From a virus, in UHGV virus genome UHGV-1773339: a stretch of DNA of 13,707 nucleotides. One strand, given 5' to 3'. Within the stretch, counting starts at the first letter, position 1. Each line of letters begins with the position of its first letter. Shown here piece after piece: positions 1 to 13,707 of the stretch. The position numbers and the translations under genes were made by a program. The notes beneath the pieces are model-generated. The model saw only the letters and a list, made by a program, of their open reading frames with translations, did no database searches and had not been told where the DNA came from.

Positions 1-154
1 ATTAGGAGAATAAATAGAGGAAACGTATCTCATTGATGATTTTCATCATGTTTCACTAGTTTTATACGATTTCCTTTCTTTTAAAAAATCCTTTATTATC
101 AATTTGTTATGAGCTTGTCGTTGTTTTTTTTTGCATTTAAGGGATAAAACAAAA

Positions 155-262
155 GATGATTTTGCTCAAATCTTCGTCTTTGCCTTTTTTGTTTTACTTT
201 GCTTTTTCTATGTCAATTTGCTAGAAATATGCAAAGCAATAATTATTAAGCAAAGTTATAAG
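155..262 (+). promoter_or_regulatory. Putative sopAB promoter/operator region with repeated CTTTGC/GCAAAG hexamers
   Basis: Hexamers tttgct 161-166, ctttgc 178-183, ctttgc 197-202, tttgct 217-222, gcaaag 231-236, gcaaag 250-255. Positions 217-235 form an inverted repeat tttgc-N9-gcaaa. GGAGA Shine-Dalgarno at 264-268, 8 nt before the sopA ATG. F SopA is known to autorepress through CTTTGC-type operator repeats. Exact -35/-10 not assigned. Confidence 0.5.
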
Positions 263-276
263 CTGGAGATGACAGT

Positions 277-1446
277 ATGTCCTTGAAAAAGTTATTACAA
301 GATTGTGTTACGCGCGGTCAAGAAATGACCCAAGCAATTGCTATAGCTCAATTCGGTGATGATAGTCCTGAAGCTCGGCGTATCACGCGTAGATGGGGGA
401 TAACTGAAGTAGCAGATTTAATTGGTGTAACTCCTCAAGCAATAAGAGATGCTGAGAAGAACGGGCGTTTACCTGCACCTGACTTTGAAATGAGAGGAAG
501 AGTTGAACGTCGTGCCGGTTATACCATAGATCAAATCAATAGTATGCGAGCTGTTTTTGGCAACCCAAACCAACGGCCACAAGATAAAAACCCAGTTGTG
601 CTTGCTGTTATGTCACACAAAGGCGGCGTTTATAAAACATCGTCTGCAGTACATCAGGCACAATGGCTAGCATTACAAGGTCATCGTGTTCTTTTAGTTG
701 AAGGTAACGATCCTCAGGGAACAGCCTCCATGTATCACGGTTATGTACCTGATTTACATATACATGCCGAGGATACTTTACTGCCATTTTACTTGGGCGA
801 ACGCGATAACGCTGAATATGCTATAAAACCAACATGCTGGCCTGGACTGGACATTATTCCTAGCTGCCTAGCTTTACACCGTATAGAAACAGATCTCATG
901 CAATATCATGCTCAGGGTAAATTGCCTCACCCTCCTCACCTGATGCTACGCGCAGCTATAGAATCAGTTTGGGATAACTACGATGTTATCGTTATAGATA
1001 GTGCTCCAAACCTCGGTACAGGAACCATTAACGTTGTTTGCGCAGCTGACGTTATCGTTGTTGCTACCCCTGCAGAATTATTTGATTACGCCTCTGTTCT
1101 ACAGTTTTTCACAATGCTTCTCGATCTCCTAGAAAGCGTTGACCTAGGCGGATTTGAGCCGACCGTTCGCTTGCTTCTGACTAAATATAGTCTCACTACA
1201 GGAAATCAATCACGATGGATGGAAGAGCAAATAAGAAATACATGGGGATCAATGGTATTACGTCAGGTTGTACGCGTTACCGATGAAGTAGGTAAAGGTC
1301 AGATAAAAATGCGAACAGTATTTGAACAAGCGGCAAACCAGCGTTCAACACTTAATGCATGGAGAAATGCCGTCTCTATATGGGACCCTGTTTGTCGAGA
1401 AATTTTTGATGATCTAATAAAACCTCGCTGGGAGAACGAAGAATGA
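277..1446 (+). CDS. sopA: Plasmid partition ATPase SopA (type Ia ParA with N-terminal DNA-binding extension)
   Basis: 389 aa ORF with ATG start and SD. Deviant Walker A box in 'VMSHKGGVYKTS'. The long N-terminal extension before the ATPase core is typical of type Ia ParA/SopA. The translation closely resembles F-plasmid SopA as I recall it. Stop overlaps the next gene start (ATGA). Confidence 0.93.
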   Translation: MSLKKLLQDCVTRGQEMTQAIAIAQFGDDSPEARRITRRWGITEVADLIGVTPQAIRDAEKNGRLPAPDFEMRGRVERRAGYTIDQINSMRAVFGNPNQRPQDKNPVVLAVMSHKGGVYKTSSAVHQAQWLALQGHRVLLVEGNDPQGTASMYHGYVPDLHIHAEDTLLPFYLGERDNAEYAIKPTCWPGLDIIPSCLALHRIETDLMQYHAQGKLPHPPHLMLRAAIESVWDNYDVIVIDSAPNLGTGTINVVCAADVIVVATPAELFDYASVLQFFTMLLDLLESVDLGGFEPTVRLLLTKYSLTTGNQSRWMEEQIRNTWGSMVLRQVVRVTDEVGKGQIKMRTVFEQAANQRSTLNAWRNAVSIWDPVCREIFDDLIKPRWENEE

Positions 1447-2432
1447 AACAACGCTCTCTTCTAAAAAATGCTCCGGATATTAATCGCATTATGAGTAATA
1501 ATCATCATGCACCTGAACATCAGCCGGTATCACCTATGGTTGGTGATTTAAAACGTCAACTGAGTTCATTAACCGGTAATAGCATAACTTTGCCAGTATG
1601 CGGACGTAATGTTAACTTTAAGTTAGAGACGATCCCCGCAGATAAAGTAGAAATGGCAACAATGGTATGGCTAGGTAATGAGCGTGATCAAGATTTATTA
1701 AATGAATCTTCTCTAGCTGATTTAATTCCATCTTTTCTAACTTCTGGGCAACAAAATCCGGCTTTCGCAAGAAAAGTGTCAGGTATTGTTGAAGTAGCTG
1801 ATGGTTCTCGAAGACGTAAAGCAGCCATTATAACTGGATGCGATTATCGTGTTCTTATTGGCGATTTAGATGATGAACAAATGCAATGGTTATCGCAGAT
1901 AGGCAACGACTATAGACCTATCAGCGCCTATGAAAGGGGGAAAAGATACCTGCGAAGGCTCCATGAATTTGACGGTAACGTAAAATCTTTAGCTGAAGCC
2001 GAAGGCGTGGATAGAAATATTATCAGCCGATGTATTAATACAGCCGGTTTACCTAAAGATATATTGGCAATATTTAACCATCCTGGTGAGTTATCAGCCA
2101 GAGCAGGAGACGCTCTTTTTAAAGCATATCAGGGACAGGAAGCAGCCATGAAAAATGCTGCATCTCAGTTGCTGAGGATGAAAAAATCAGGTGAAAGTTT
2201 AGATGCGCAAAGAATAATACAGGCTCTTCATGATTTCATTATTGTTGAGAAAAACAATTCACATGGAGAGAAAAGGGAAAAGAAATATGGAGACGGTGTT
2301 GTGGCGAAATATGGGAAAAATTTCACAACATTAAAATTAGATAACAGAAAAATACCATCGCACCTAATGAGTAAAATTGAATCTATTCTTGAGGAGGCGT
2401 TTGGAAATTCTTCCGATGTAAAAAATAACTAA
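1443..2432 (+). CDS. sopB: Plasmid partition centromere-binding protein SopB (ParB family)
   Basis: 329 aa ORF translationally coupled to sopA (ATGA overlap at 1443-1446). Recognisable SopB/ParB-like stretches (e.g. 'ITLPVCGR', 'GNERDQ', 'DGSRRRKAA', 'GNDYRPISAYERG'). Position immediately after the ParA gene. Ends at TAA 2430-2432. Confidence 0.92.
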   Translation: MKQRSLLKNAPDINRIMSNNHHAPEHQPVSPMVGDLKRQLSSLTGNSITLPVCGRNVNFKLETIPADKVEMATMVWLGNERDQDLLNESSLADLIPSFLTSGQQNPAFARKVSGIVEVADGSRRRKAAIITGCDYRVLIGDLDDEQMQWLSQIGNDYRPISAYERGKRYLRRLHEFDGNVKSLAEAEGVDRNIISRCINTAGLPKDILAIFNHPGELSARAGDALFKAYQGQEAAMKNAASQLLRMKKSGESLDAQRIIQALHDFIIVEKNNSHGEKREKKYGDGVVAKYGKNFTTLKLDNRKIPSHLMSKIESILEEAFGNSSDVKNN

Positions 2433-2448
2433 TAGCAGAAAATAGAAT

Positions 2449-2475
2449 AGACCCCATCAGTTATAGATGGGGTCT
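2449..2475. terminator. Bidirectional intrinsic terminator between convergent sopB and the tail/accessory operon
   Basis: Perfect 10-bp inverted repeat agaccccatc / gatggggtct with a 7-nt loop, followed by a T-rich run on the plus strand (taattttatt) and preceded by an A-rich run (T-rich on the minus strand). Lies between the sopB stop (2432) and the stop of the minus-strand ORF (2481). Confidence 0.7.
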
Positions 2476-2480
2476 TAATT

Positions 2481-2768
2481 TTATTCAAAAAATATAAATA
2501 CAAGTAAACACGCCACCACCGGCACAGCAAAATCCATCAGGCTTGCTACATCCCATGCACGCGGATCAAAACCGCCCCACCACGGCATATTCATACGCTT
2601 GCCATGTCCGAACATTTCAATCCAGCGATATTCTGCCTGGGTGTGTTCACGCGCAATGAAGAACGTACAACCGGCTATCGCTCCGTAAGCCCAGTTCCCG
2701 GTAAAAAGACCAATCAGTAGCTGCGCAGCCACAGCACAAAGAGCATGAAGGAAAGGTGTTATATCCAT
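2481..2768 (-). CDS. Small multi-pass membrane protein of unknown function (candidate moron)
   Basis: 95 aa ORF with ATG start. Perfect SD (AAGGAGGAG) sits between the upstream stop TAA and the ATG on the minus strand. Three hydrophobic segments (about residues 5-25, 26-40, 75-94) around a Trp/Gly-rich loop 'MFGHGKRMNMPWWGGFDPRAWD'. No family recognised. Confidence 0.75.
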   Translation of the reverse strand: MDITPFLHALCAVAAQLLIGLFTGNWAYGAIAGCTFFIAREHTQAEYRWIEMFGHGKRMNMPWWGGFDPRAWDVASLMDFAVPVVACLLVFIFFE

Positions 2769-2778
2769 TACTCCTCCT

Positions 2779-3483
2779 TTAACCGATATCGCTTCGGGAA
2801 GTTGATAACAGCTTTAATTCTGACTCAAGTTCATCAACTCTTTCTGTCAGTTTCTGGATATGGTGAATCAGTGGAACAACCAGACGTTCGTACATTACAC
2901 CTTCGGCAACAAGGCCATTGCTGGAAATAGCTTCCGGTGCATCATCTTCGTTAGCTGGTCGCCAGTGTACAAACTGAGGGGCAATTTCTCCTACTTCCTC
3001 GGCAATCAATCCGTAGAATCCCCAGTCACGCCTGTCATTTTCGCATTGCGACCTGTACCACACAGGGCGCATCTTGAAAATGAGATCGGCGTGCTCTGAA
3101 TCTATCGTCTCTACTGAATGTTTATAGCGAATAGACGATGTTGACCGCAGCACAGACGAAATTGCGGGGTCAGGATTAAGATAAAGGTTTGCCGCCGCTG
3201 TAGTCGTGCCCAATCCCCATAAATAAAACGCTTCACGGCCAGTCAGCGGGTAAAAATCTCCACCATAATTACCGCTTTCCAGAGCATTCACTTCCAGTTT
3301 GTTTTTCAGCTTATTATCCACTTCAGTTTTTGTGTATCTGGAGCTGATATCCTGCTTTGCACTGGTCATCTCAGTCTGAAGCGTTGATACTTTTCCGCTA
3401 ATTGAGGAAATATCTTCCTTAGCTTTACTGACATCTCCCTTCAGCGTGGTGATATCTCCCGGAATTACTGTCGATGTAGCCAT
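2779..3483 (-). CDS. Coiled-coil protein with C-terminal peptidase-S74-like intramolecular chaperone domain (tail-fibre/tailspike-type auto-processing domain)
   Basis: 234 aa ORF, ATG start preceded by GAGGGAGA SD. C-terminal half shows the S74/chaperone-of-endosialidase pattern: Ser116...Lys121 dyad spacing ('SSIRYK'), 'DWGFYGLIAEEVGEIAPQFV', 'MYERLVVPLIHHIQKL', terminal coiled coil 'VDELESELKLL'. N-terminal 60 residues are heptad-like coiled coil. Confidence 0.75.
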   Translation of the reverse strand: MATSTVIPGDITTLKGDVSKAKEDISSISGKVSTLQTEMTSAKQDISSRYTKTEVDNKLKNKLEVNALESGNYGGDFYPLTGREAFYLWGLGTTTAAANLYLNPDPAISSVLRSTSSIRYKHSVETIDSEHADLIFKMRPVWYRSQCENDRRDWGFYGLIAEEVGEIAPQFVHWRPANEDDAPEAISSNGLVAEGVMYERLVVPLIHHIQKLTERVDELESELKLLSTSRSDIG

Positions 3484-3492
3484 TTGTCTCCC

Positions 3493-3774
3493 TCACATCC
3501 AGCCACGAAGTTGATGTTCAACTACAACCGCGTATTCATCGAATAATGACGGTGTTTTCACATCATTAATGATGCGCACGTTTACAAAATATCCGTCTTC
3601 CTTAACACATACCGGTTCGCCATCTTCATTCAGCTCTCCGGTTTCTTTGTACACGTTTCCTATCACATCAATGAGAACATTGTTCTGCATCACCTCGTCA
3701 TCGTAATAACCAATGCTATCCATAAAGGCCGAAAAGTCGGCCTTGTTTATGAATTTGAGGGTTAAGTCTCGCAT
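3493..3774 (-). CDS. Hypothetical acidic 93 aa protein, translationally coupled to the tail fibre gene
   Basis: ATG start shares one base with the stop of the upstream fibre gene (TAATG at 3772-3776, minus strand). Its stop is 9 nt before the next ORF start. No motif recognised. The position suggests a fibre accessory or assembly factor. Confidence 0.6.
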   Translation of the reverse strand: MRDLTLKFINKADFSAFMDSIGYYDDEVMQNNVLIDVIGNVYKETGELNEDGEPVCVKEDGYFVNVRIINDVKTPSLFDEYAVVVEHQLRGWM

Positions 3775-5981
3775 TATATTCTTTCTCCCATTTGTGCATC
3801 TGTCAGTTCCTTATGCCAGATACGTAAATTGCGCACGTGTCCAAATAAATGCCTGTTACCTGATATTGATTGACCGCCTATATTTATTGGCCCTTCTGTA
3901 TAACGTTGTCTTGTGTGTTGTGATACACCAACAGCGCCAAAGTTACCGTTTATAACAGCACGCAATTCTTTCTGCTCTGTAAACTTAAACCCAGCAATAA
4001 ACCTGCGGGTTGTCCTGTTACAGTAGGCTTTATACTCGGTCTTTGTTCCTTTTCCGTTAGTTATAATTGAGCGCGCGCCTCCAGAGGTAAAACCAAAATA
4101 CATATAACTTTCATCAGCAACATCCGTTGTTGCGCCAGTTATTGACACGTTAAGAAGCCTTGCTGAACCTTCACTGTTTGGCATTTTGTCCCAGTTGATA
4201 TTAACTTCCATAAGAACGCTTAACGGGGGCGTTGACCAGTTCAGTCTTATTGGCATTATTACCACTTCACTAGCCCGTGTAACTGCCACATCTGATGTAA
4301 CGATAAATGATGATGCACACGATCCTTTTTCAAATTGCGGCGTAGTAAACATTATCTGATCGCCTTTTTTGATCGCCCTTTTATCTGCTCCCATTTCAAA
4401 GCGCCCATACATGCTTTTTGCTTCTGGTGATTTATATGTAAATTCGACGCGTAACCATCCGTTAGCTTCTCTGTATATGACATGATTTACAGCATCCCCA
4501 CCAGAAAAACCTAAAACATCACCAGTTTCGCAATCTATGTAGGAACCAGCTACCAGCGTGTTGCTTGTGCCGTCATCGTTAACGAAAGATATTCTGGGTC
4601 TTAACGTTATAATACCTTCTCCATTTATCTTCTTAACCCTACAGGACAAGGTAACAGATTCATTTGCAGCAACATCAATAACCCTACTGTATCCAGTAGA
4701 TATTATCGTCGCCCTTTCAGTGGTTGATGTTTCCTTTACATCGAACAAACCATATTTAAAACCATATTCATCAACCGATGTGGTTATTTCTATATTCTTG
4801 TCGTCATAGTTCCATAATGAAGGATTGTTACTATTAGTAAATGTATTTGTCCTCTGACCTTCAATTAATAAACCTTCCTTTTCAAAGCGCGGCTCGTTAA
4901 TTTCTGCAAAAGCAAATGAACCTGATTTGTTTATATACGTTGCAGAAGTGGAGCGAGTGAAAGATACAACCTTCTCTGATGGAAAAGTAATAACATCATC
5001 ACCGATAGTTACTTTTTTATAACCAGGAGCGAAACCAGTAATCATTTCCAGCGAATCGTTAAATGGTATCCACACATCAGGAAGCGGCTGCAATACTTGT
5101 TTATACGGCTCCGCAGCCTGGCTTGCATACTCTCTGGCTGCATCCTCACTTGCTTTAGCTGCTGTCTGGCTTGCTGCCGATGCTTGCGCCGAGTTCGCCG
5201 CTGCAGTCTCGCTTGTCTTTGCATTGGTTTCACTGGTTTTTGCAGCTTTTTGACTGTTTGCTGATGCAGTGGCAGAAGCAGCCGCCGCACTTGCAGAACC
5301 AGCTGCGGCACTCTCGCTTTCGGCTGCTGCATCCTGACTGCTTTTCGCCGCAGTTTCACTGACTTTGGCATTCGTTTCGCTGGTCTTCGCTGCCGTCTGG
5401 CTGGACTTTGCGTTAGTTTCGCTCGCCTTCGCGGCTGTTTCGCTATTTTTCGCGTTGGTTTCTGATTTTTTGGCTGCTGTCGCGGAGTTTGCCGATGCAG
5501 TCTGCGAGGTCGCTGCCGCCTGTGCGCTGTTAGCTGCATTCGTTTCTGAGGTTTTCGCCGCGTTCTTCGATGAAGCCGCTGCAGTTTCGGATTTCTTTGC
5601 CGCCGCTGCGCTCTGAGAGGCGGCTTCGGCGTTGCGTGCCGCTTCTTCCACCATTGCCTCAAAACGGCGCAATGCCTCCGGCATGACATCATCTTCCGTC
5701 ATGGCACCGAGAAAATCATTCAGCGTACCTGGTCTGGAACCTTCATAGACGGTAATGGTCCCGGCATGTGAAGGCGGAAAACCTTCAACCAGCAGGGTGA
5801 CGCTGTACTGGCCATACTCAACATCCATGCTGTAACGTCCGGCTTCATCCGGATTTTCAGAAGCCACCGTGTTCACCAGTACCGTGGTGCTGTTACGCTT
5901 TGCCTTCAGTTGAATAGTGCAGTTCTGTATTGGTTTTCCCGCACCATCTTTCAGCACACCTGAGATTTTTACTGCTGCCAT
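3774..5981 (-). CDS. stf: Side tail fibre protein: lambda Stf-like N-terminal anchor, Ala-rich repeat stalk, novel distal region
   Basis: Long ORF. The track begins at a GTG (5987), but the ATG at 5981 gives 'MAAVKISGVLKDG...', matching the conserved Stf N-terminus as I recall it, with GGAG SD upstream. Residues about 120-285 are degenerate Ala-rich 'SETNAK/AAKTSE' repeats. The distal ~450 residues are encoded by lower-GC DNA and end in a LamG/concanavalin-like looking motif ('GNRHLFGHVRNLRIWHKELTDAQM'). Confidence 0.85.
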   Translation of the reverse strand: MAAVKISGVLKDGAGKPIQNCTIQLKAKRNSTTVLVNTVASENPDEAGRYSMDVEYGQYSVTLLVEGFPPSHAGTITVYEGSRPGTLNDFLGAMTEDDVMPEALRRFEAMVEEAARNAEAASQSAAAAKKSETAAASSKNAAKTSETNAANSAQAAATSQTASANSATAAKKSETNAKNSETAAKASETNAKSSQTAAKTSETNAKVSETAAKSSQDAAAESESAAAGSASAAAASATASANSQKAAKTSETNAKTSETAAANSAQASAASQTAAKASEDAAREYASQAAEPYKQVLQPLPDVWIPFNDSLEMITGFAPGYKKVTIGDDVITFPSEKVVSFTRSTSATYINKSGSFAFAEINEPRFEKEGLLIEGQRTNTFTNSNNPSLWNYDDKNIEITTSVDEYGFKYGLFDVKETSTTERATIISTGYSRVIDVAANESVTLSCRVKKINGEGIITLRPRISFVNDDGTSNTLVAGSYIDCETGDVLGFSGGDAVNHVIYREANGWLRVEFTYKSPEAKSMYGRFEMGADKRAIKKGDQIMFTTPQFEKGSCASSFIVTSDVAVTRASEVVIMPIRLNWSTPPLSVLMEVNINWDKMPNSEGSARLLNVSITGATTDVADESYMYFGFTSGGARSIITNGKGTKTEYKAYCNRTTRRFIAGFKFTEQKELRAVINGNFGAVGVSQHTRQRYTEGPINIGGQSISGNRHLFGHVRNLRIWHKELTDAQMGERI
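5133..5630 (-). repeat. In-frame degenerate tandem repeats encoding the Ala/Ser/Thr-rich fibre stalk
   Basis: Repeated gc(a/t)gc-rich DNA encoding reiterated KxSETNAK / TAAKxSE units. This generates the spurious Arg-rich and Ala/Phe-rich ORFs seen in other frames and strands. Confidence 0.7.
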
Positions 5982-5990
5982 ATCCACTCC

Positions 5991-6019
5991 ACAAAAAAGC
6001 CCGCCTGAACCGGCGGGCT
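5991..6019 (-). terminator. Intrinsic terminator downstream of lom
   Basis: On the minus strand: stem agcccgcc / ggcgggct with a 6-nt loop, followed immediately by TTTTTT (plus-strand A-run 5993-5998). Sits between the lom stop (6046) and the stf start. Confidence 0.75.
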
Positions 6020-6045
6020 GTCATAACACTGTGTTACCTGGCTAA

Positions 6046-6645
6046 TCAGAATTTATAACCGACACCCACGATGAAACCGTCAGTGCGCCAGTCGCCACTG
6101 CCGGAGCCTTCATAAGCAATATCAATGGCCACGGATTCGGTCGGGTTAAACTGCACGCCAGCTCCCCACGCCAGAGACGTGTTGCTGTGGCGACCGTCAT
6201 CACTTCCGGTCAGCACATCGTGCGTTTTCCCCTTGTTGTCAGTTACGCGGAGATAATCCCCGGAGAACGTCGAAACACGGCTGTAAGCCACACCTGCCAT
6301 CGCATAAGCACTGAACCATTCATTCACGCGTACAGATGGCCCCGCCATCATGCTGAACCAGCGGTTACGCACTGAATCTTCATGCCAGCGGGTATCGCTG
6401 TAATGCGTTTTTTGCTCATCTTTGGCATTGGCATAACTGAATGACGTCACCAGCCCCAGCGTGTCCGTAAATTCATAACGGTATTTCACGTTAATGCCCT
6501 TCAGGTCATCACTGCCTGGCATATCAGTATGGGCCTGAAGATACCCGGCGCTTAGTGTGGACTGATGCTCTGCTGCGCTCGCTGGCGTACCAGCGGCAAC
6601 CAGCCAGACTACTGCGGACAGAATAACAGCACATAATTTACGCAT
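6046..6645 (-). CDS. lom: Outer-membrane beta-barrel protein of the Lom/Ail/PagC/OmpX family
   Basis: 199 aa. N-terminal signal peptide ('...AAGTPASAAEH'), alternating amphipathic beta-strand pattern, C-terminal '...DWRTDGFIVGVGYKF' with terminal Phe typical of OMP barrels. Synteny (directly after J) as in lambda. Confidence 0.9.
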   Translation of the reverse strand: MRKLCAVILSAVVWLVAAGTPASAAEHQSTLSAGYLQAHTDMPGSDDLKGINVKYRYEFTDTLGLVTSFSYANAKDEQKTHYSDTRWHEDSVRNRWFSMMAGPSVRVNEWFSAYAMAGVAYSRVSTFSGDYLRVTDNKGKTHDVLTGSDDGRHSNTSLAWGAGVQFNPTESVAIDIAYEGSGSGDWRTDGFIVGVGYKF

Positions 6646-6669
6646 AATTACCTCTCGCTTTTCTGCAAT

Positions 6670-6693
6670 AAAAAAGGCGTCATTTCTGACGCC
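6670..6693 (-). terminator. Intrinsic terminator downstream of J
   Basis: On the minus strand: stem ggcgtca / tgacgcc with a 4-nt loop, followed by TTTTTTATT. About 20 nt after the J stop and about 25 nt before the lom ATG. Confidence 0.7.
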
Positions 6694-6712
6694 CGTATTG
6701 GGGTTATAAAAT

Positions 6713-9700
6713 TCAGCTGATACTGATGCCTGCGGTGGCTTTCTTCATCACCACAACCAGCAAATCGCTGATACTTGCTGTGGGATACCAGCCATTTACC
6801 CACCATGCTGATACCGAAAACTCCAGTGTCATTACGCCACTGCCTGCAGGCATATCAATAACACCCGTGTAAATCAGAGTATTATCCAGAGCCGTTCGGT
6901 TATAAATTTCAGCCCCGTTTTTCTTCACTATCAGGCGGCATGACGAATAAGTATCGCTATTCTCCCGTTCATGTCTGGCACCGCTGAAAGCCACCGCTGG
7001 AATAACAATTTGCCGGTCAAACGGCTGATCGTCATAAACCCTGACGGTAATGGTCCCTGATGGCCACCGTTCCGGTGCACGGGAGTCCCGGGGGAAAGCT
7101 TTGCCCACTGTTTTAACGAGATCGCCTTCAATCTGGTTCGCGGACAGTTTTCCCAGAACCCGGCAATTCTCGTTAATCGTGACGTTGTTGAGCGTCCCGG
7201 AGTTCGCATTCACGTTACCGCTGATATCGGCATTTTTCGCCGTCAGCCGCCCGTCCGGTGTCAGGGAAAATGCCGGAGGATTACCGCCGCTGGTAATGGT
7301 GGGAGCCGTCAGGTATTTCAGGAACACTTCGTTCATGAATATCTGATCGCCCTGACCAACAAACATCGGCTTTGTGTTGCCATTCGCAGGATTAATCATC
7401 GCAATCCTGTCTGCCGCCAGCAGCACCTGACTCTGCATGCCGTCAGGGGTGTTTTCAATACCGGCACCAATACCCGCGATATAAAGGCGTCCGTCCTGCA
7501 TCTGCTGCAGCTTCACAGCCCACATGCTGTTCAGGTTATTATTTGTATCAACCTGAACCTTCTGTATCTGCTGGATCGCTGCACTCTGGTCTTCCAGTTT
7601 CTTATTGACGGTCTGCGTGATTTCATTACTGACATCCGTGATGGACGTTCTGATTTCCGCCAGGTCAGGCGCAAGCTGACCGTTATCAATCTGCGTCCAC
7701 AGCTCCTGAGCCAGATGGGTTTTCCCTATCTCTCCTTTGAAAAAATCCAGATAGCCGGATGCATCATCACTCGGCTGGCCAACAGCCTCCACGAATGCCG
7801 ATTTGCCAACGGTGTTCACACTGCGGATGTAAAAATAATAATCATGGCCCGGCTTGATATTGATACTGGCAGCTATCCAGTACAGCGCCGTGCCAAGATA
7901 GCGGGCTGTGGTTTCAACCTGCCTGATATCCGCAATCCGTTTTTCCGAGAACCAGAACTCAAACTGTACCGTCGGGTCATAAACCGCAAGATGCGGCGTG
8001 GCGGTTATCTGAAAATAGCCCGGCGTCAGCTCAATCCGCGACGGCGCTGCCGGTGCGGCAATCCGGAACGATACCGACGCCGGATCGCCCTGCTGCCCCC
8101 AGGCATTTGCCGCCCGGACTGTCAGCCTGTAGTTTCCCAACGCCAGTTGCGTGAAGCGGTATGTGGTTTCCGTCGTCCGGGCCGTGCTGACCAGCCGCTC
8201 ACTGCCGTCATCCGCTGCCACGGTCAGGCGAAGCATAAAGCTCACGCCCTTCACCACCTTCGGCGTGTCCCAGCGCGCCAGCACCTGGTATTCCCCGCTG
8301 TCTGCGGTGACTTCGGCGGTCAGGTGCTGCACCGCTGGCGGCGTGACACCATTCACCGTGCCGCTCTGGTCGCCGTCAAAGTGCGCCCCGTTATCCACGA
8401 TGGCTTCTTTTTCCGGTACATGCTGCACGGCAGTGATGGCATACGTGCCGTCGTCGTTCTCACGGATACTCACGCAGCGGAACAGGCGCTGGCGCAGCGT
8501 CGGCAGCTTCAGCCCCCACACGCTGTATTCTGCAACGCCGTCAGGAACCCGGCTCACTTTCACCTTCACGCCGTCGGTGACGGACTGGACCTCCACGCTG
8601 ACCGGATTGCCACTTCCGTCAACCAGGCTTATCAGCGTGGTGCCGGAGGATGGCAGCGTGATTTCACGGTCGAGCGTCAGCGTCCGGGTCTGGCTGTTCA
8701 CAGCCAGCACGCGCCCGCCGATGCTGATACCGGCATAGTCATCATCGCAGATTTCAATGACATCGCCCGGTACATGGCGAAGCCCTTCAGCACCCACGCT
8801 GAAGTCCACGGTCTGCGTTTCCAGCAGTTCCGTTTTAATCAGCCACAGCCCGGCGCGGTGTGCCTGCCCCCGGCTGGTACAGCCAAAGGCATCCATCTTC
8901 GTGACGTTACGACCGTAACGGGCAATGGCCTGCGTATCTTCAACAAGCTCTGTCGCCGTCTCCCAGCCGTTATTCGGGTCAATCCAGTTCACCTCAACGG
9001 CATTATGGCGGTCCTTCAGGGCGCTGAAACTGTAGCGGAACGGCGCGCCATCATCCGGCATCACCACATTACTGCGGTTATAGGTCCACACCTTATCCGA
9101 CGGTCGGTCCTGCACGAACGTCAGCGTCTGCCCGTTCCATACCGGCATACAGCGCATCGCCGAGCAGAAATCACTGAGCACATCCCACGCCTTGCGCTGT
9201 GTGGTCAGGTACGCATTACAGGTGATGCGCGGCTCCGTGCCGCCAAAGCCGTCCGGCACTGACTGGTCGCAGTACTGGCCGATGACATACAGCGCCCATT
9301 TATCCACATCCGCCGCACCAAGACGTTTCCCCATGCCGTAGCGCGGGTGGGTCAGCATATCCCACAGACACCAGGCCATGTTGTTGCTGTATGCCGGTTT
9401 AAACGTTCCGTCCCAGATACCGCTGTATTGCCGCGTCTGCGGGTTATAATTCGACGGCACCTGCAGAATACGCCCGCGCAGATGATAATTACGGCTCACC
9501 TGCTGGCTGCCGAACTGCTCCGAGTCCACCTGCACGCCGACCAGTGCCGTGTTCGGGTAGCACTGTTTCACATCGATGATTTCGGTGTATGACGACCAGA
9601 GCGTTTTGTTCTGCAGCTGGTCTGTGGTGCTGTCCGGCGTCATCCTGCGCATCCGTATATTGAACGGGCGCGGCGGCAGGTTATCCACCACCACCGAGGC

Positions 9701-10192
9701 CAGATACTGCGAGGTGGTTTTGCCCTTAATGGTGATGTCTTTTTCCGTCACCCAGCCACCGTTACGCTGTATCTGAACCAGCAGTCGGACCTCCGACGGA
9801 TTCCTGTCACCCTTTGAGGTGGTTTCCACCAGTGCCTGTACACCGAAGGTAAAGCGCAGACGGTCGATGTTTGCCGACGTGATGGTCCGGGTGATCGGCG
9901 TGTCATATTTCACTTCCGTACCCAGCACCGTCTCGGAGCCGGAGGATTCAAATCCCTCCGGCGGTGTCTGCTCCTGCTCACCTGCCCGGAAAACCACCGT
10001 GACACCGGAGATATTGGTATTCCCCTCACTGTCCAGCACTGGCGTACTGTTCAGCAGCACGCTTTTTAATCCATCCACCGGACCTTCAACCGGCCCTTCG
10101 CTGATGGCATCGATCACACTCAGCAACTGCGTGGACTTCAGGTTGTCCTTCGCTTCGCGCGGGGTATGCCCCTTACTGCTGCCTTTACCCAT
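6713..10192 (-). CDS. J: Tail tip / host specificity protein J (central tail fibre)
   Basis: 1159 aa ORF with ATG start, N-terminus '[20 protein letters not shown]' as in lambda gpJ. Size and position after I match the lambda order. The final ~1 kb of the gene has lower GC, as expected for a receptor-binding region. Confidence 0.95.
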
Positions 10193-10213
10193 TCCTCACG
10201 CTCCATAAACGAC

Positions 10214-10234
10214 AAAACCGCCCGCAGGCGGTTT
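10214..10234 (-). other. Stem-loop in the I-J intergenic region (possible attenuator or RNA stability element)
   Basis: Inverted repeat aaaaccgcc / ggcggttt with a 4-nt loop. On the minus strand it is followed by tgtcgtttat (only partly U-rich) and then the J SD/ATG. Confidence 0.4.
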
Positions 10235-10252
10235 CACATAAAACATTTTGCA

Positions 10253-10924
10253 TCAGCGACCAATCACCACAACCTGACCACCGTCCCCCTCGTCTGCCGT
10301 GCTGATCTCCTGAGAAACCACGCGTGACCCCACGCGCATTTCCCCGTACAGAACAGGCAGAACATTGCCCTGGGCAACCATGTTATCCAGTGAGGAGAAA
10401 TAGGTGTTCTGCTTACCGTTATCCGTTGTCTGTGTACGGGGAGTTCTGGCTTTCGGTGCCAGCATCTGCGCCACACCACCGAGCACCATACTGGCACCGA
10501 GAGAAAACAGGATGCCGGTCATACCACCGGCCCCAATGGCTGCCCCCCATGCTGCAAGGGTGGCTCCGGCGGTAAAGAATGATCCGGCAATGGCGGCAGC
10601 CCCCAGGACAATCTGGAATACGCCACCTGACTTGGCCCCGGCGACTCTGGGAACAATATGAATCACAGCGCCATCAGGCAGAGTCTCATGTAACTGCGCC
10701 GTTAACCCGGACGTGCTGACGTCCCGCCCGGCAATCCGTACCTGATACCAGCCGTCGCTCAGTTTCTGACGAAACGCCGGGAGCTGTGTGGCCAGTGCCC
10801 GGATGGCTTCAGCCCCCGTTTTCACACGAAGGTCGATGCGGCGACCAAATCGTTGTAAATCCCCGTAAAGGCAGATGCGCGCCATGCCCGGTGACGCCAG
10901 AGGGAGTGTGTGCGTCGCTGCCAT
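10253..10924 (-). CDS. I: Tail tip assembly protein I
   Basis: 223 aa. Gly/Ala-rich hydrophobic central segment. Order K-I-J and size match lambda gpI. Confidence 0.9.
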   Translation of the reverse strand: MAATHTLPLASPGMARICLYGDLQRFGRRIDLRVKTGAEAIRALATQLPAFRQKLSDGWYQVRIAGRDVSTSGLTAQLHETLPDGAVIHIVPRVAGAKSGGVFQIVLGAAAIAGSFFTAGATLAAWGAAIGAGGMTGILFSLGASMVLGGVAQMLAPKARTPRTQTTDNGKQNTYFSSLDNMVAQGNVLPVLYGEMRVGSRVVSQEISTADEGDGGQVVVIGR

Positions 10925-11565
10925 TTGTCGGTGTACCTCTCTCGTTTGCTCAGTTGTTCAGGAATATGGTGCAGCAGCTCGCCGTCGCCGCAGTAAATTG
11001 CGGCGTGATTCGGCACCGATGAACCAAAACAGCACAGCAGCACATCGCCCGGCTGTGCCGCTGACAACGGCACCTGATACAGCCCCGTCGCCTCCAGATT
11101 ATCCAGATAGAGATTCTGGCCGTTACGCCACCAGTCATCCTCACGATGAAAGTCCGGCATCTCAATCCCCGCCAGATGATAAGCATCCCGGAACAGGGTG
11201 TAACAGTCCGTCACACCGTGCTCAAAGCGCCGCCCGGTAAGATGCGGCACACAGCGGAACTTATGAATCGTCCCCCGGCAGACCAGCCACCACGGCAAAT
11301 CACTCTGCACCTGCAGCCGCCGGTCGGCCTCACTCAGCCAGGGCAGACCACCGGGGTGGCTGTGGACCAGCGCCACAATCTCACCCTGCATTTCTGCCTG
11401 CAGCCAGTCTTCCGGCGACATACGGAAATACGCCTCCGGCTCACCGGAGATATTCACGCAGGGGAAATATCTTTCCCCCTCCGGCGTGCTTACCACGAAG
11501 CCGCACGACTCCGCTGGCGCACATCGCCGGGCGTGCGCCAGAATCGCTGATTCTGTCTGTGTCAT
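10822..11565 (-). CDS. K: Tail tip assembly protein K (JAMM/MPN plus NlpC/P60-like peptidase domains)
   Basis: 247 aa. JAMM motif HxHx7Sx2D present ('HSHPGGLPWLSEAD', H68/H70/S78/D81). Downstream Cys121 ('VTDCYTLF') and His residues consistent with an NlpC/P60-type fold. Overlaps I by 103 nt in another frame. Confidence 0.9.
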   Translation of the reverse strand: MTQTESAILAHARRCAPAESCGFVVSTPEGERYFPCVNISGEPEAYFRMSPEDWLQAEMQGEIVALVHSHPGGLPWLSEADRRLQVQSDLPWWLVCRGTIHKFRCVPHLTGRRFEHGVTDCYTLFRDAYHLAGIEMPDFHREDDWWRNGQNLYLDNLEATGLYQVPLSAAQPGDVLLCCFGSSVPNHAAIYCGDGELLHHIPEQLSKRERYTDKWQRRTHSLWRHRAWRASAFTGIYNDLVAASTFV

Positions 11566-11570
11566 GGGAT

Positions 11571-12269
11571 TTACTGCGAAAGTTTGTTAATGGAAAGGAA
11601 GCCGCCAAAGTTGCCGACGTTATTGCGAAACTTACAGCCACTCAGGCATTTGCTGCATTTATCCTTCGTGATATCGGACGTCGGCTGGTCATATTCATCC
11701 GCGACAGCCGGACCGTGATAACCGCACTCATCACCGCGATAGGTCCAGGTGCAGGTGTTGGCCAGCATGATACGTCCCGGAAAAACAGCGCCATCCGTTT
11801 CCGTCGGCGTGGACAGTACAAAGGAGGCACTCACCGCGCTCAGTTCGCTGCACTGCTCGATGCGCCAGCGGCTGATCACCTCCTGCTCCGGATCGGCGTC
11901 ACTGTTTCCGTTGACGAAGTTCACCGCATCCAGAAAACGGGCGTAAACCTTACGCCGGACCACCGTTCCGCCGACCAGACTCTGCAGGTCTTCCGCCATC
12001 CCGGTGACCATGCCGTGCAGGTTAGAAACCGTCAGTGTCGGACGGGCAGCACTGCCCTTGCCGTTCAGTTCAAATCCCGTCCCCTGAATGGGATACGGCT
12101 GATACTGTCGCCCCTGCCAGGTGACCGGCTCACCTTTTTCGTTCTGCTCATTACAGAAAAAATAACGTTCTCCACCGACCTCTGTCAGATCGATTTCCCA
12201 GAGCACCACGCTGGCCGACTGCTCCGCACGGGTGCATTCATTCAGTGTTTCCTGCCGGATATCCTGCAT
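11571..12269 (-). CDS. L: Tail tip protein L
   Basis: 232 aa. C-terminal Cys cluster ('DECGY...DKCSKCLSGCKF') consistent with the Fe-S-binding C-terminus described for lambda gpL. Start overlaps the M stop (TGATG). Confidence 0.92.
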   Translation of the reverse strand: MQDIRQETLNECTRAEQSASVVLWEIDLTEVGGERYFFCNEQNEKGEPVTWQGRQYQPYPIQGTGFELNGKGSAARPTLTVSNLHGMVTGMAEDLQSLVGGTVVRRKVYARFLDAVNFVNGNSDADPEQEVISRWRIEQCSELSAVSASFVLSTPTETDGAVFPGRIMLANTCTWTYRGDECGYHGPAVADEYDQPTSDITKDKCSKCLSGCKFRNNVGNFGGFLSINKLSQ

Positions 12270-12598
12270 CAGTTCACCACCTGTTTAAACTCTGCGCTGA
12301 ACTCAACACGCAGCATACTGACCCGCGACGACCATTTTGCGCAGGTCACCTTTATCTGCCTGTAACCATAAGGCGGCGTCCACAGAAAGGCCTTCCAGCC
12401 TCCGTGCTCTGCCAGAAACGACTCCAGCGCCGTGGCCTCCTCACGGGAGACAGACAGCGTCACGCTGTACGTTTTCAGGTTGGCATTCAGCCCGGCAGGC
12501 GCTCGCTGGGAATAGCCATCACCAAAGCGCACCTTTCTTACAGAAGGGGACGAAGCCACATCCATACCGGGTTTCACTTTCCAGCGGAAGGTTTTCAT
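12269..12598 (-). CDS. M: Tail tip protein M
   Basis: 109 aa, the size of lambda gpM. Start overlaps the H stop (ATGA at 12595-12598). Position between H and L. Confidence 0.92.
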   Translation of the reverse strand: MKTFRWKVKPGMDVASSPSVRKVRFGDGYSQRAPAGLNANLKTYSVTLSVSREEATALESFLAEHGGWKAFLWTPPYGYRQIKVTCAKWSSRVSMLRVEFSAEFKQVVN

Positions 12599-13707
12599 CG
12601 TCCACCTCCGGAGAACAGGCCACCATCACGCATCTGTGTCTGAATTTCATCACGGGCACCCTTGCGGGCCATGTCATACACCGCCTTCAGAGCAGCCGGA
12701 CCTATCTGCCCGTTCGTGCCATCGTTATTGATCTCGATGTTGTACTGCGGGGCAAACATCGCCATACCTGAACCACCAATATCCGCCACAACCCCCAGCT
12801 TACCGTCAGCACCACGACGCAGTGGCAGAATGGCTTCAGGTCCCGCTTCCCCCATCACACCCGCGCCTTTTGCAAAAGCAAAAAACGTCGGACGGTTAAC
12901 CACCGTGCCACTGTAACGACTCAAATCAGCAGACTGATAAATCCCCCCATTGGCATTCAGGGAAAGGCTGCTGAGATCAAATCCCAGTACACTGCCAATC
13001 CCTTTTATCGATTTCATCATGGTTGCCTGCGCCAGGATTTTCGCCATATCTGACAGCACAGAAGAGGTGAAGGATTTGAAATTGAGTTTGCCGGTAGTGA
13101 CAAAAGTTGCCAGGCCATTTCCCATGTTGCTGAAGGCTGACGAGAACACCTGTTCTGCTGTTCCTGCCGTATTATCTGCATCCACGGTAAAATCCTGAAA
13201 TGCACGCAGGACTCCGTTTTTCCAGTTACCCTGCACAACTTCAAGCTGTTGCCAGTAACGGCGATTCTCATTCAGTTGTCGGTTCAGGCTCTCCGTCAGC
13301 GCCTGCTCGGCCTTTCTGTAGTCATCCGTGTTATATGTTCCTTTCTGCTCACTATCCCGCCTCAACTGCTCCAGCTGTTGCTGGTATTTCTGGCGAAGAC
13401 TCAGTTGTATCTGATATCGCTGCCGCTGCTGATCACCCATACCCACCGTGGCGATATCCAGGTCATGTTGCTGACGCTGAGCGCGCTCTTCTTCAGCCAG
13501 TTGACTGGTCAGCTGAATTGTTTTTTTCTTCAGCTCGTTGAGTGCCGTCTGTTTCTGAAGCTCCTGCTGTTTTACATCCAGCAGCGTCAGTGCCTGAATC
13601 AGTTCATCTTTACGGGCCAGCACACTCTTTTCATCTGCCGTCAGTTTTTTCCCGTCCAGGTCGCTGATGCGCTGCTGCAGAGCCAGAAGCTGTTTATGCG
13701 CTTCTGT
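12595..13707 (-). CDS. H: Tail tape measure protein H, C-terminal part (5' end lies beyond the window)
   Basis: Reading frame stays open from 12598 to the right window edge. The track start at 13623 is an internal GTG. Coiled-coil-rich sequence followed by Gly-rich C-terminus. Position upstream of M. Confidence 0.88.
   Translation of the reverse strand, partial: TEAHKQLLALQQRISDLDGKKLTADEKSVLARKDELIQALTLLDVKQQELQKQTALNELKKKTIQLTSQLAEEERAQRQQHDLDIATVGMGDQQRQRYQIQLSLRQKYQQQLEQLRRDSEQKGTYNTDDYRKAEQALTESLNRQLNENRRYWQQLEVVQGNWKNGVLRAFQDFTVDADNTAGTAEQVFSSAFSNMGNGLATFVTTGKLNFKSFTSSVLSDMAKILAQATMMKSIKGIGSVLGFDLSSLSLNANGGIYQSADLSRYSGTVVNRPTFFAFAKGAGVMGEAGPEAILPLRRGADGKLGVVADIGGSGMAMFAPQYNIEINNDGTNGQIGPAALKAVYDMARKGARDEIQTQMRDGGLFSGGGR

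Follow-up and report, generated by a model that had tools for sequence, protein, structure and literature searches.

A metagenome contig joining sopAB to lambda-type tail genes is probably the telomere-proximal arm of an N15-like linear phage-plasmid of Escherichia

The layout of the linear phage-plasmid N15 has reportedly been known since its genome was published. In the N15 record (NC_001901; Ravinvirus N15), the convergent genes sopB and sopA come after a tail fibre gene and gene 26; the telomere site telRL lies ∼ 460 to 490 nt upstream of sopA, and telN comes next. The prototype of such type Ia partition systems is SopABC of the F plasmid, and the PparAB promoters of F, N15 and phiKO2 have the same architecture of ParA-binding hexamers (PMC8465637). 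Each of the N15 centromeres, IR1-4, is a lone TGCGACCNNGGTCGCA palindrome (PMC7205306). Shigella and Escherichia harbour N15-like phage-plasmids whose structural genes, according to a survey preprint, share "considerable identity" with those of lambda and vary mostly in the tail genes (bioRxiv 10.1101/2025.09.12.675607), and surveys of phage-plasmids already describe such hybrids, in which an N15 backbone carries the structural cassette of lambda. The lineage is known from an isolated phage and dozens of deposited plasmid records. Here we analysed a stretch of 13,707 bases from the virus genome UHGV-1773339 (the window), in which a sopAB operon converges on tail genes of lambda type. The window is one whole metagenome contig (ENA assembly ERZ772875, NODE_2430_length_13707_cov_3.97) with ∼ 4x coverage; anything past either of its ends was therefore inferred from relatives. 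We estimate at roughly 90% the probability that it is the telomere-proximal arm of an Escherichia N15-like linear phage-plasmid ("telomere phage") with a lambda-type virion module.

Megablast searches returned one phage and many plasmid records, typically of 46 to 50 kb, that span both the sop and the tail genes. The closest relatives were Escherichia phage PhiR46_1 (PV340565.1) and the plasmids p13TMH22-2 (NZ_CP019258.1) and pEC21Z144-46K (NZ_CP101226.1). Positions 1-4463 of the window were 100% identical to p13TMH22-2 15472-19934, with a further match to its mirror arm (15109-10647), and positions 1-2769 had 99.5-99.7% DNA identity to PhiR46_1 and pEC21Z144-46K. SopA and SopB of all three relatives were 100% identical to those of the window, and the gene order from sop to M was the same. 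PhiR46_1 was deposited as a linear genome with annotated telL and telR. A coding sequence (CDS) of 633 amino acids (aa) adjoins telL, ParB and ParA are the last genes before telR, and the phage also encodes a 1331-aa "primase", a cI-like repressor and the full head and tail module in lambda order. The RefSeq annotation of pEC21Z144-46K lists a protelomerase family protein, a 1331-aa CyRepA1-family replication protein, an XRE repressor, a Cro/CI regulator, a Q antiterminator and a RelE/ParE toxin pair; p13TMH22-2 is likewise annotated with a "protelomerase family protein". The gene content and order of these relatives are those of N15. We found no paper on PhiR46_1 when searching the literature by its accessions and names.

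The relatives differ from the window at defined places. In PhiR46_1 and pEC21Z144-46K, the alleles of stf and of the fibre-accessory genes are different, and Stf is 58-66% identical to that of the window; in p13TMH22-2, stf is interrupted by an IS3 element at a site that is empty in the window; and in all three the C-terminal part of H is only ∼ 30% identical to that of the window. A preliminary description of the window, made from the letters alone, had likened the layout to that of N15, and this comparison was correct according to the N15 annotation: N15 gp28 and gp27 are 93.3% and 73.7% identical to SopA and SopB of the window, respectively, and tail fibre genes, convergent sopB and sopA, and the position of the telomere in the relatives all agree. 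The comparison stood for the sop module and its layout but not for the tail, which is of lambda type proper and not that of N15. Also unlike in the window, cor, gene 25 and a umuD-like gene adjoin sopB in N15; their place in the window is taken by lom, stf and the fibre-accessory genes. The same description took the element to replicate and segregate as a plasmid in the lysogen. The relatives, with their protelomerase, N15-type RepA and telL/telR, support this view, which for the window itself would hold by analogy. A protelomerase, a tel site, repA and a centromere palindrome are absent from the window, and protelomerase, telomere and replicon were found in the relatives that are 99.5-100% identical over its sop end.

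The proposed type Ia ParA/ParB pair was confirmed at the protein level. SopA matched the NCBIfam SopA equivalog model NF010259 with 734 bits (cut-off, 725) over model positions 1-387 of 388. Pfam domains AAA_31 and CbiA were matched at residues 108-342, with a weak helix-turn-helix (HTH) match at residues 42-68. Structures of P1/P7-type ParA also matched; P1 ParA is only ∼ 22% identical to the window SopA. SopB, whose gene directly follows sopA with an overlap of 4 nt, matched NF010252/PRK13698 with 405 bits (cut-off, 274), Pfam SoPB_HTH (E = 1.6e-23) and the solved structure of F SopB, 3mky (E = 5.8e-39). It aligns to the DNA-binding and dimerisation domains of F SopB, but with only ∼ 43% identity across the region of known structure and ∼ 56% within the HTH. 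The operon had been called F-type, and this holds in so far as the proteins are Sop-type; they are of N15 type rather than those of F, the layout of the cis sites is also N15-type, and a sopC array is missing.

Upstream of sopA, three direct hexamers lie at 178 (CTTTGC), 197 (CTTTGC) and 216 (ATTTGC, one mismatch), with 13 bp between neighbours. Two inverted copies, GCAAAG, lie at 231 and 250, where a 28-bp spacer separates them from the direct hexamers at 197 and 216, respectively. By chance, ∼ 0.06 such hexamers are expected per 100 nt. The arrangement is that of the published F, N15 and phiKO2 promoters: the CTTTGC hexamers have the spacing seen in the F promoter, and the N15 operator has the same ParA operator hexamers with the same 19-nt periodicity. 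Judged by this arrangement, positions 178-255 are likely the ParA-autoregulated promoter-operator of sopAB.

The centromere was sought by motif and by repeat structure. Allowing up to two mismatches, neither the F-type site GGGACCNNGGTCCC nor the N15-type centromere GCGACCNNGGTCGC had a match in the window, and searches for tandem and dispersed repeats around sop yielded only short pairs at chance level, with no centromere array after sopB. Unlike F, then, the window has neither a sopC-like tandem 43-bp array nor a GGGACCNNGGTCCC site after sopB, and its partition genes are present without a centromere of either type in the window. This is consistent with N15, in which we located four palindromes, at 33481, 35932, 41126 and 45563; they equal IR1-4, and none lies in the sop/tail arm. 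PhiR46_1 and pEC21Z144-46K contain the same palindrome as N15, five copies of GCGACCNNGGTCGC each, in syntenic positions (0.0025 expected by chance). Going along the genome, these sites are found within repA, past Q, and then in the rest of the non-structural region that precedes the terminase genes. By analogy, the centromeres of the window element would be dispersed single palindromes elsewhere in its genome.

The sop and tail operons had been described as convergent and ∼ 50 bp apart, and indeed the stop codon of sopB (2432) and the nearest one on the tail side (2481) are 48 bp apart. The gene abutting sopB is not stf, as was supposed, but the 95-aa orf95; three open reading frames (ORFs) lie between stf and sopB. 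The gap contains a hairpin (2449-2475) with a 10-bp stem, six GC pairs and T-runs on both strands. Homology to N15 stops at 2381 and homology to chromosomal lambdoid prophages begins at 2508, which places a module boundary at this putative bidirectional terminator. The G+C content steps sharply from ∼ 38-43% in the sop module (1-2500) to 52-62% in the tail genes (5000-13707), as would fit modules that differ in origin and meet at the terminator. The junction of sop and tail genes is also present in N15 and, among the matches listed, in about twenty plasmid records from E. coli, E. albertii and E. fergusonii; the adjacency is therefore neither chance nor a one-off join.

The recurrence of this junction bears on the first alternative explanation, namely an assembly chimera: the assembler would have fused sopAB from some conventional plasmid, F-like or other, with the tail genes of a lambdoid prophage in a chromosome, and the adjacency would not be biological. 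Such an error is conceivable in a metagenome contig of low coverage, since very similar tail regions recur within E. coli genomes (median, 2 copies; maximum, 15), and the H end of the contig (12,751-13,707) resembles a chromosomal prophage more than any N15-like relative. Nevertheless, we regard the chimera as improbable. The 4463 bases identical to p13TMH22-2, an independent isolate assembly, run across the junction of sopB and the tail-fibre genes, and in sliding 250-nt windows the identity to p13TMH22-2 stayed at 98-100% in most windows up to ∼ 11,750. The same junction is found in PhiR46_1, pEC21Z144-46K and the other records listed, and no F-type sopC lies downstream of sopB. The independent records already refute a chimera at the junction; one is possible only for the last 1-1.7 kb.

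This end of the contig also weighs against an N15-like linear phage-plasmid: the last 1 kb carries an H allele of integrative lambdoid prophages that is found in no N15-like record, and the H end could be an assembly chimera with a chromosomal prophage. Further points weigh in the same direction. With telN, tel, repA and centromere all outside the window, maintenance as a linear plasmid is a conclusion drawn from near-identical relatives; p13TMH22-2, the nearest relative, has the IS3 element in stf; and the inducibility and completeness of the window element would be predictions from its sequence.

We followed the identity along the H end. The H fragment matched TIGR01541 (tape_meas_lam_C) with E = 1e-86, and its C-terminal part was only 30-32% identical to H of lambda, PhiR46_1, pEC21Z144-46K and p13TMH22-2. 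In the 5' end of L and in M (12,000-12,733), the identity to any phage-plasmid was only 92-95%. From 12,751 to 13,707, the window was 99.6-100% identical to a chromosomal lambdoid prophage and had no match to any N15-like record. Two sets of candidates for a plasmid that combines this allele with sopAB were rejected. pZ1323HEC0010-3 has a related H (89% identical) but is an integrase-bearing lambdoid without sop, and the 99% matches to the H allele that are filed as plasmids are chromosome-size records. Thus, in the collections searched, no plasmid or phage record of N15-like type matched this combination. Either the last 1 kb reflects a natural mosaic, or the assembler crossed over from one sequence to another within the conserved M/H junction; ∼ 4x coverage cannot separate the two cases. 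That the contig is a natural recombinant, in which an N15-like phage-plasmid took its H region from an integrative chromosomal lambdoid of the mEp460/cdtI/phi458 type, is a tentative proposal to which we give slightly less than even odds. The chimera question at the H end leaves the sop-tail junction, which independent isolate assemblies confirm, unaffected.

To place the element on a plasmid or a chromosome, we looked for this sopAB in complete E. coli genomes and found it in 15 of 5426. Twenty-one of its 23 places were on plasmid records. The two others were both in the chromosome record of strain YDC107 (NZ_CP025707.1; 1-42534), which opens with the sop region in two mirrored copies; frameshifts are frequent in one of the arms, and the end with the structural genes adjoins genes of the Qin prophage. 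We rejected this record as a case of chromosomal integration of sopAB: the mirrored, partly frameshifted copy is very likely a mis-assembly arising from read-through of a hairpin, so that the two places amount to a single palindromic assembly artefact. No integrase is annotated in the full-length relatives examined (PhiR46_1 and pEC21Z144-46K), and integrase-bearing lambdoids with similar tails have no sop, in line with the initial view that the layout is not that of integrating lambdoid phages.

These findings also bear on the second alternative, an integrated lambdoid prophage or defective remnant that captured a sopAB cassette and is not maintained as a plasmid. The presence of this sopAB in one chromosome record, the tail genes, which are of a type common in integrated prophages, and the lack of a replicon in the window could be read in its favor. 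Yet the YDC107 copy is very likely a mis-joined hairpin read-through, all other places are on plasmid records of ∼ 46-75 kb, and the full-length relatives examined have a protelomerase and no annotated integrase. We consider that an integrated element has little chance of being the correct explanation.

Evidence for linearity came from the ends of the relatives. The p13TMH22-2 record contains a palindrome, perfect over at least 72 nt, whose center (15290/15291) lies 182 nt to the left of window base 1. Its center reads ...ATATCAGCACATAATTCCCCATTATACGCGCGTATAATGGGGAATTATGTGCTGATAT..., with the N15 telRL core, and it includes the N15 telO core TATACGCGCGTATA; PhiR46_1 ends in the same core, and the ends of the relatives, CCATTATACGCGCGTATAATGG, agree with the telRL core of N15. 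In PhiR46_1, which has 46290 positions, window base 1 falls at 46098. Measured on these two relatives, the window would start ∼ 182-192 nt from the hairpin tip. The p13TMH22-2 record is mirrored at the telN end too, with two inverted, frameshifted protelomerase genes within 59592-63873, and mirroring at both ends is explained by long reads running through hairpin telomeres. The record is a 75-kb "circular" one in which many genes of one arm are frameshifted; the element itself is linear with hairpin ends, and its assembly has turned it into a partial palindrome. The "circular" record of pEC21Z144-46K joins the sop end to the telN end at its end/start junction. No tel palindrome was present in the 160 nt examined across this junction, and hence telomere sequence is missing from the deposited record.

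A circular phage-plasmid in the style of P1, D6 or SSU5 is the least probable alternative and very nearly negligible: most related plasmid records are labeled "circular" and the window has no telomere, but the relatives encode a protelomerase, PhiR46_1 was deposited as linear with both telL and telR, the perfect palindromes at the sop and telN ends of p13TMH22-2 are what hairpin read-through predicts, the "circular" junction of pEC21Z144-46K shows no tel palindrome in the stretch examined, and P1 ParA is only distantly similar to the SopA of the window.

For the favored N15-like linear phage-plasmid, the following cycle can be proposed by analogy with the relatives. In the lysogen, a genome of ∼ 46 kb would persist as a low-copy linear plasmid with covalently closed hairpin ends, made by a protelomerase acting at a tel palindrome of N15 type that would lie ∼ 180-190 nt outside window base 1, and an N15-type RepA would replicate it. 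SopB would bind the 16-bp TGCGACCNNGGTCGCA palindromes scattered in the other genome arm, not beside sopB, while SopA-ATP on the nucleoid would position the copies, so that each daughter cell would receive one. SopA would repress its own promoter via the hexamers. Upon induction, the late operon would be expressed and yield a lambda-type tail, and the terminator would separate the convergent late and sop transcripts.

The remaining genes of the window form the tail tip and fibre region. The ORF layout of the window and the contig's own gene calls agreed, and an Rfam scan of the whole window gave no match to an RNA family. The features are collected in Table 1.

Table 1. Coordinates of the features in the 13,707-base window
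Feature	Position	Strand	Description
Leader	1-177	+	AT-rich, telomere-proximal; upstream of sop operator
Likely sopAB promoter-operator	178-255	+	ParA-binding hexamers
sopA	277-1446	+	389 aa; type Ia ParA partition ATPase with N-terminal DNA-binding region
sopB	1443-2432	+	329 aa; ParB-type centromere-binding protein
Intrinsic-terminator-like hairpin	2449-2475		Bidirectional; between convergent sop and tail operons
orf95	2481-2768	-	95 aa; small conserved ORF, function unknown; distal end of tail-fibre module
Tail-fibre-domain protein	2779-3483	-	234 aa; S74-type intramolecular chaperone domain
orf93	3493-3774	-	Small conserved ORF, function unknown; between stf and fibre-domain protein
stf	3774-5981	-	735 aa from ATG; side tail fibre
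lom	6046-6645	-	Ail/Lom outer-membrane protein
J	6713-10192	-	Tail tip and host-specificity protein
I	10253-10825	-	Tail tip assembly protein
K	10822-11565	-	Tail tip assembly protein; JAB and NlpC/P60 domains
L	11571-12269	-	Minor tail protein
M	12269-12598	-	Minor tail protein
H	12595-13707	-	Tape-measure protein; C-terminal 370 aa only, cut by contig end

The tail genes belong to lambda (NC_001416) rather than to N15. L, K, I, Lom, the N-terminal part of Stf, and J matched their lambda families in Pfam/NCBIfam. L matched Phage_tail_L with E = 1e-99, I matched Lambda_tail_I, J matched the NCBIfam model lambda_TipJ with 2391 bits, and M has an annotated Phage_min_tail domain. M, L, K, I and J were 92.7%, 96.6%, 94%, 99.6% and 83% identical to the lambda proteins, respectively, against only 30-38% for the N15 counterparts (31% for J versus N15 gp21), and at the DNA level 7696-12733 was 96.6% identical to lambda. 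The order from M to J, lom and stf is identical in lambda. The claim of a complete H-M-L-K-I-J-lom-stf module in lambda order was thus right as to the order and the lambda families but not as to completeness, because the contig end cuts H. Unlike lambda, in which the tail genes lead to the b region, int and att, those of the window lead to sopBA (and, in the relatives, to the telomere); the C-terminal third of J, lom and stf diverge, the H allele is different, and a tfa of lambda type is lacking.

The 3' third of J (6713-7700) had no match to lambda DNA or was 77% identical to it, against the high identity further upstream, and the receptor of the window J is probably not the LamB of lambda, to judge from its sequence. 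Lom matched Pfam Ail_Lom (E = 6e-128) and was 45% identical to lambda Lom. Stf matched Pfam phage_tail_N (E = 9e-67) and also an NCBIfam spike-fibre domain. Its shaft region contains two short arrays of 21-nt (7-codon) tandem repeats at 5272-5444. CTTTGC recurs within stf at 5217, 5406 and 5595, and this 189-nt spacing suggests a repeated unit that would comprise 63 aa. At 4459-4463, p13TMH22-2 has an insertion of ∼ 1.3 kb of the IS3 family, where the alignment blocks overlap by 5 bases; stf of the window is uninterrupted here, as an empty site.

Downstream of stf, we did not find a tfa of lambda type, and no protein encoded there aligned with the lambda region including tfa/orf-194. The side-fibre accessory set (2481-3774) consists instead of orf93 and orf95 bracketing the 234-aa S74 protein, unlike the stf-tfa arrangement of lambda. 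The 234-aa protein matched Pfam Peptidase_S74 at residues 116-172 as well as PHROG tail-fibre families, and the relatives label it "tail fiber domain-containing protein". Its allele was 100% identical in p13TMH22-2; in PhiR46_1 and pEC21Z144-46K, only the first ∼ 30 residues matched. orf95 matched phrog_1443, a family of unknown function (E = 5e-57), and had no match in Pfam or NCBIfam; orf93 matched phrog_1361 (E = 1e-43).

With its lineage already known, the window matters little as a discovery, but it has some practical value as a worked example. Elements of this kind are rare, as the count among the complete E. coli genomes shows. They are routinely mislabeled as circular "cryptic plasmids" or mis-assembled, either as palindromes or into chromosomes, and they break into contigs near the hairpin telomere; the mirrored copy in YDC107 could be misread as a chromosomal integration. 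sopAB abutting tail-fibre genes is a usable marker for these elements in fragmented metagenomes. If the H region proves to be a natural recombinant, it would directly capture an exchange of modules between lambdoids carried on plasmids and those carried on chromosomes.

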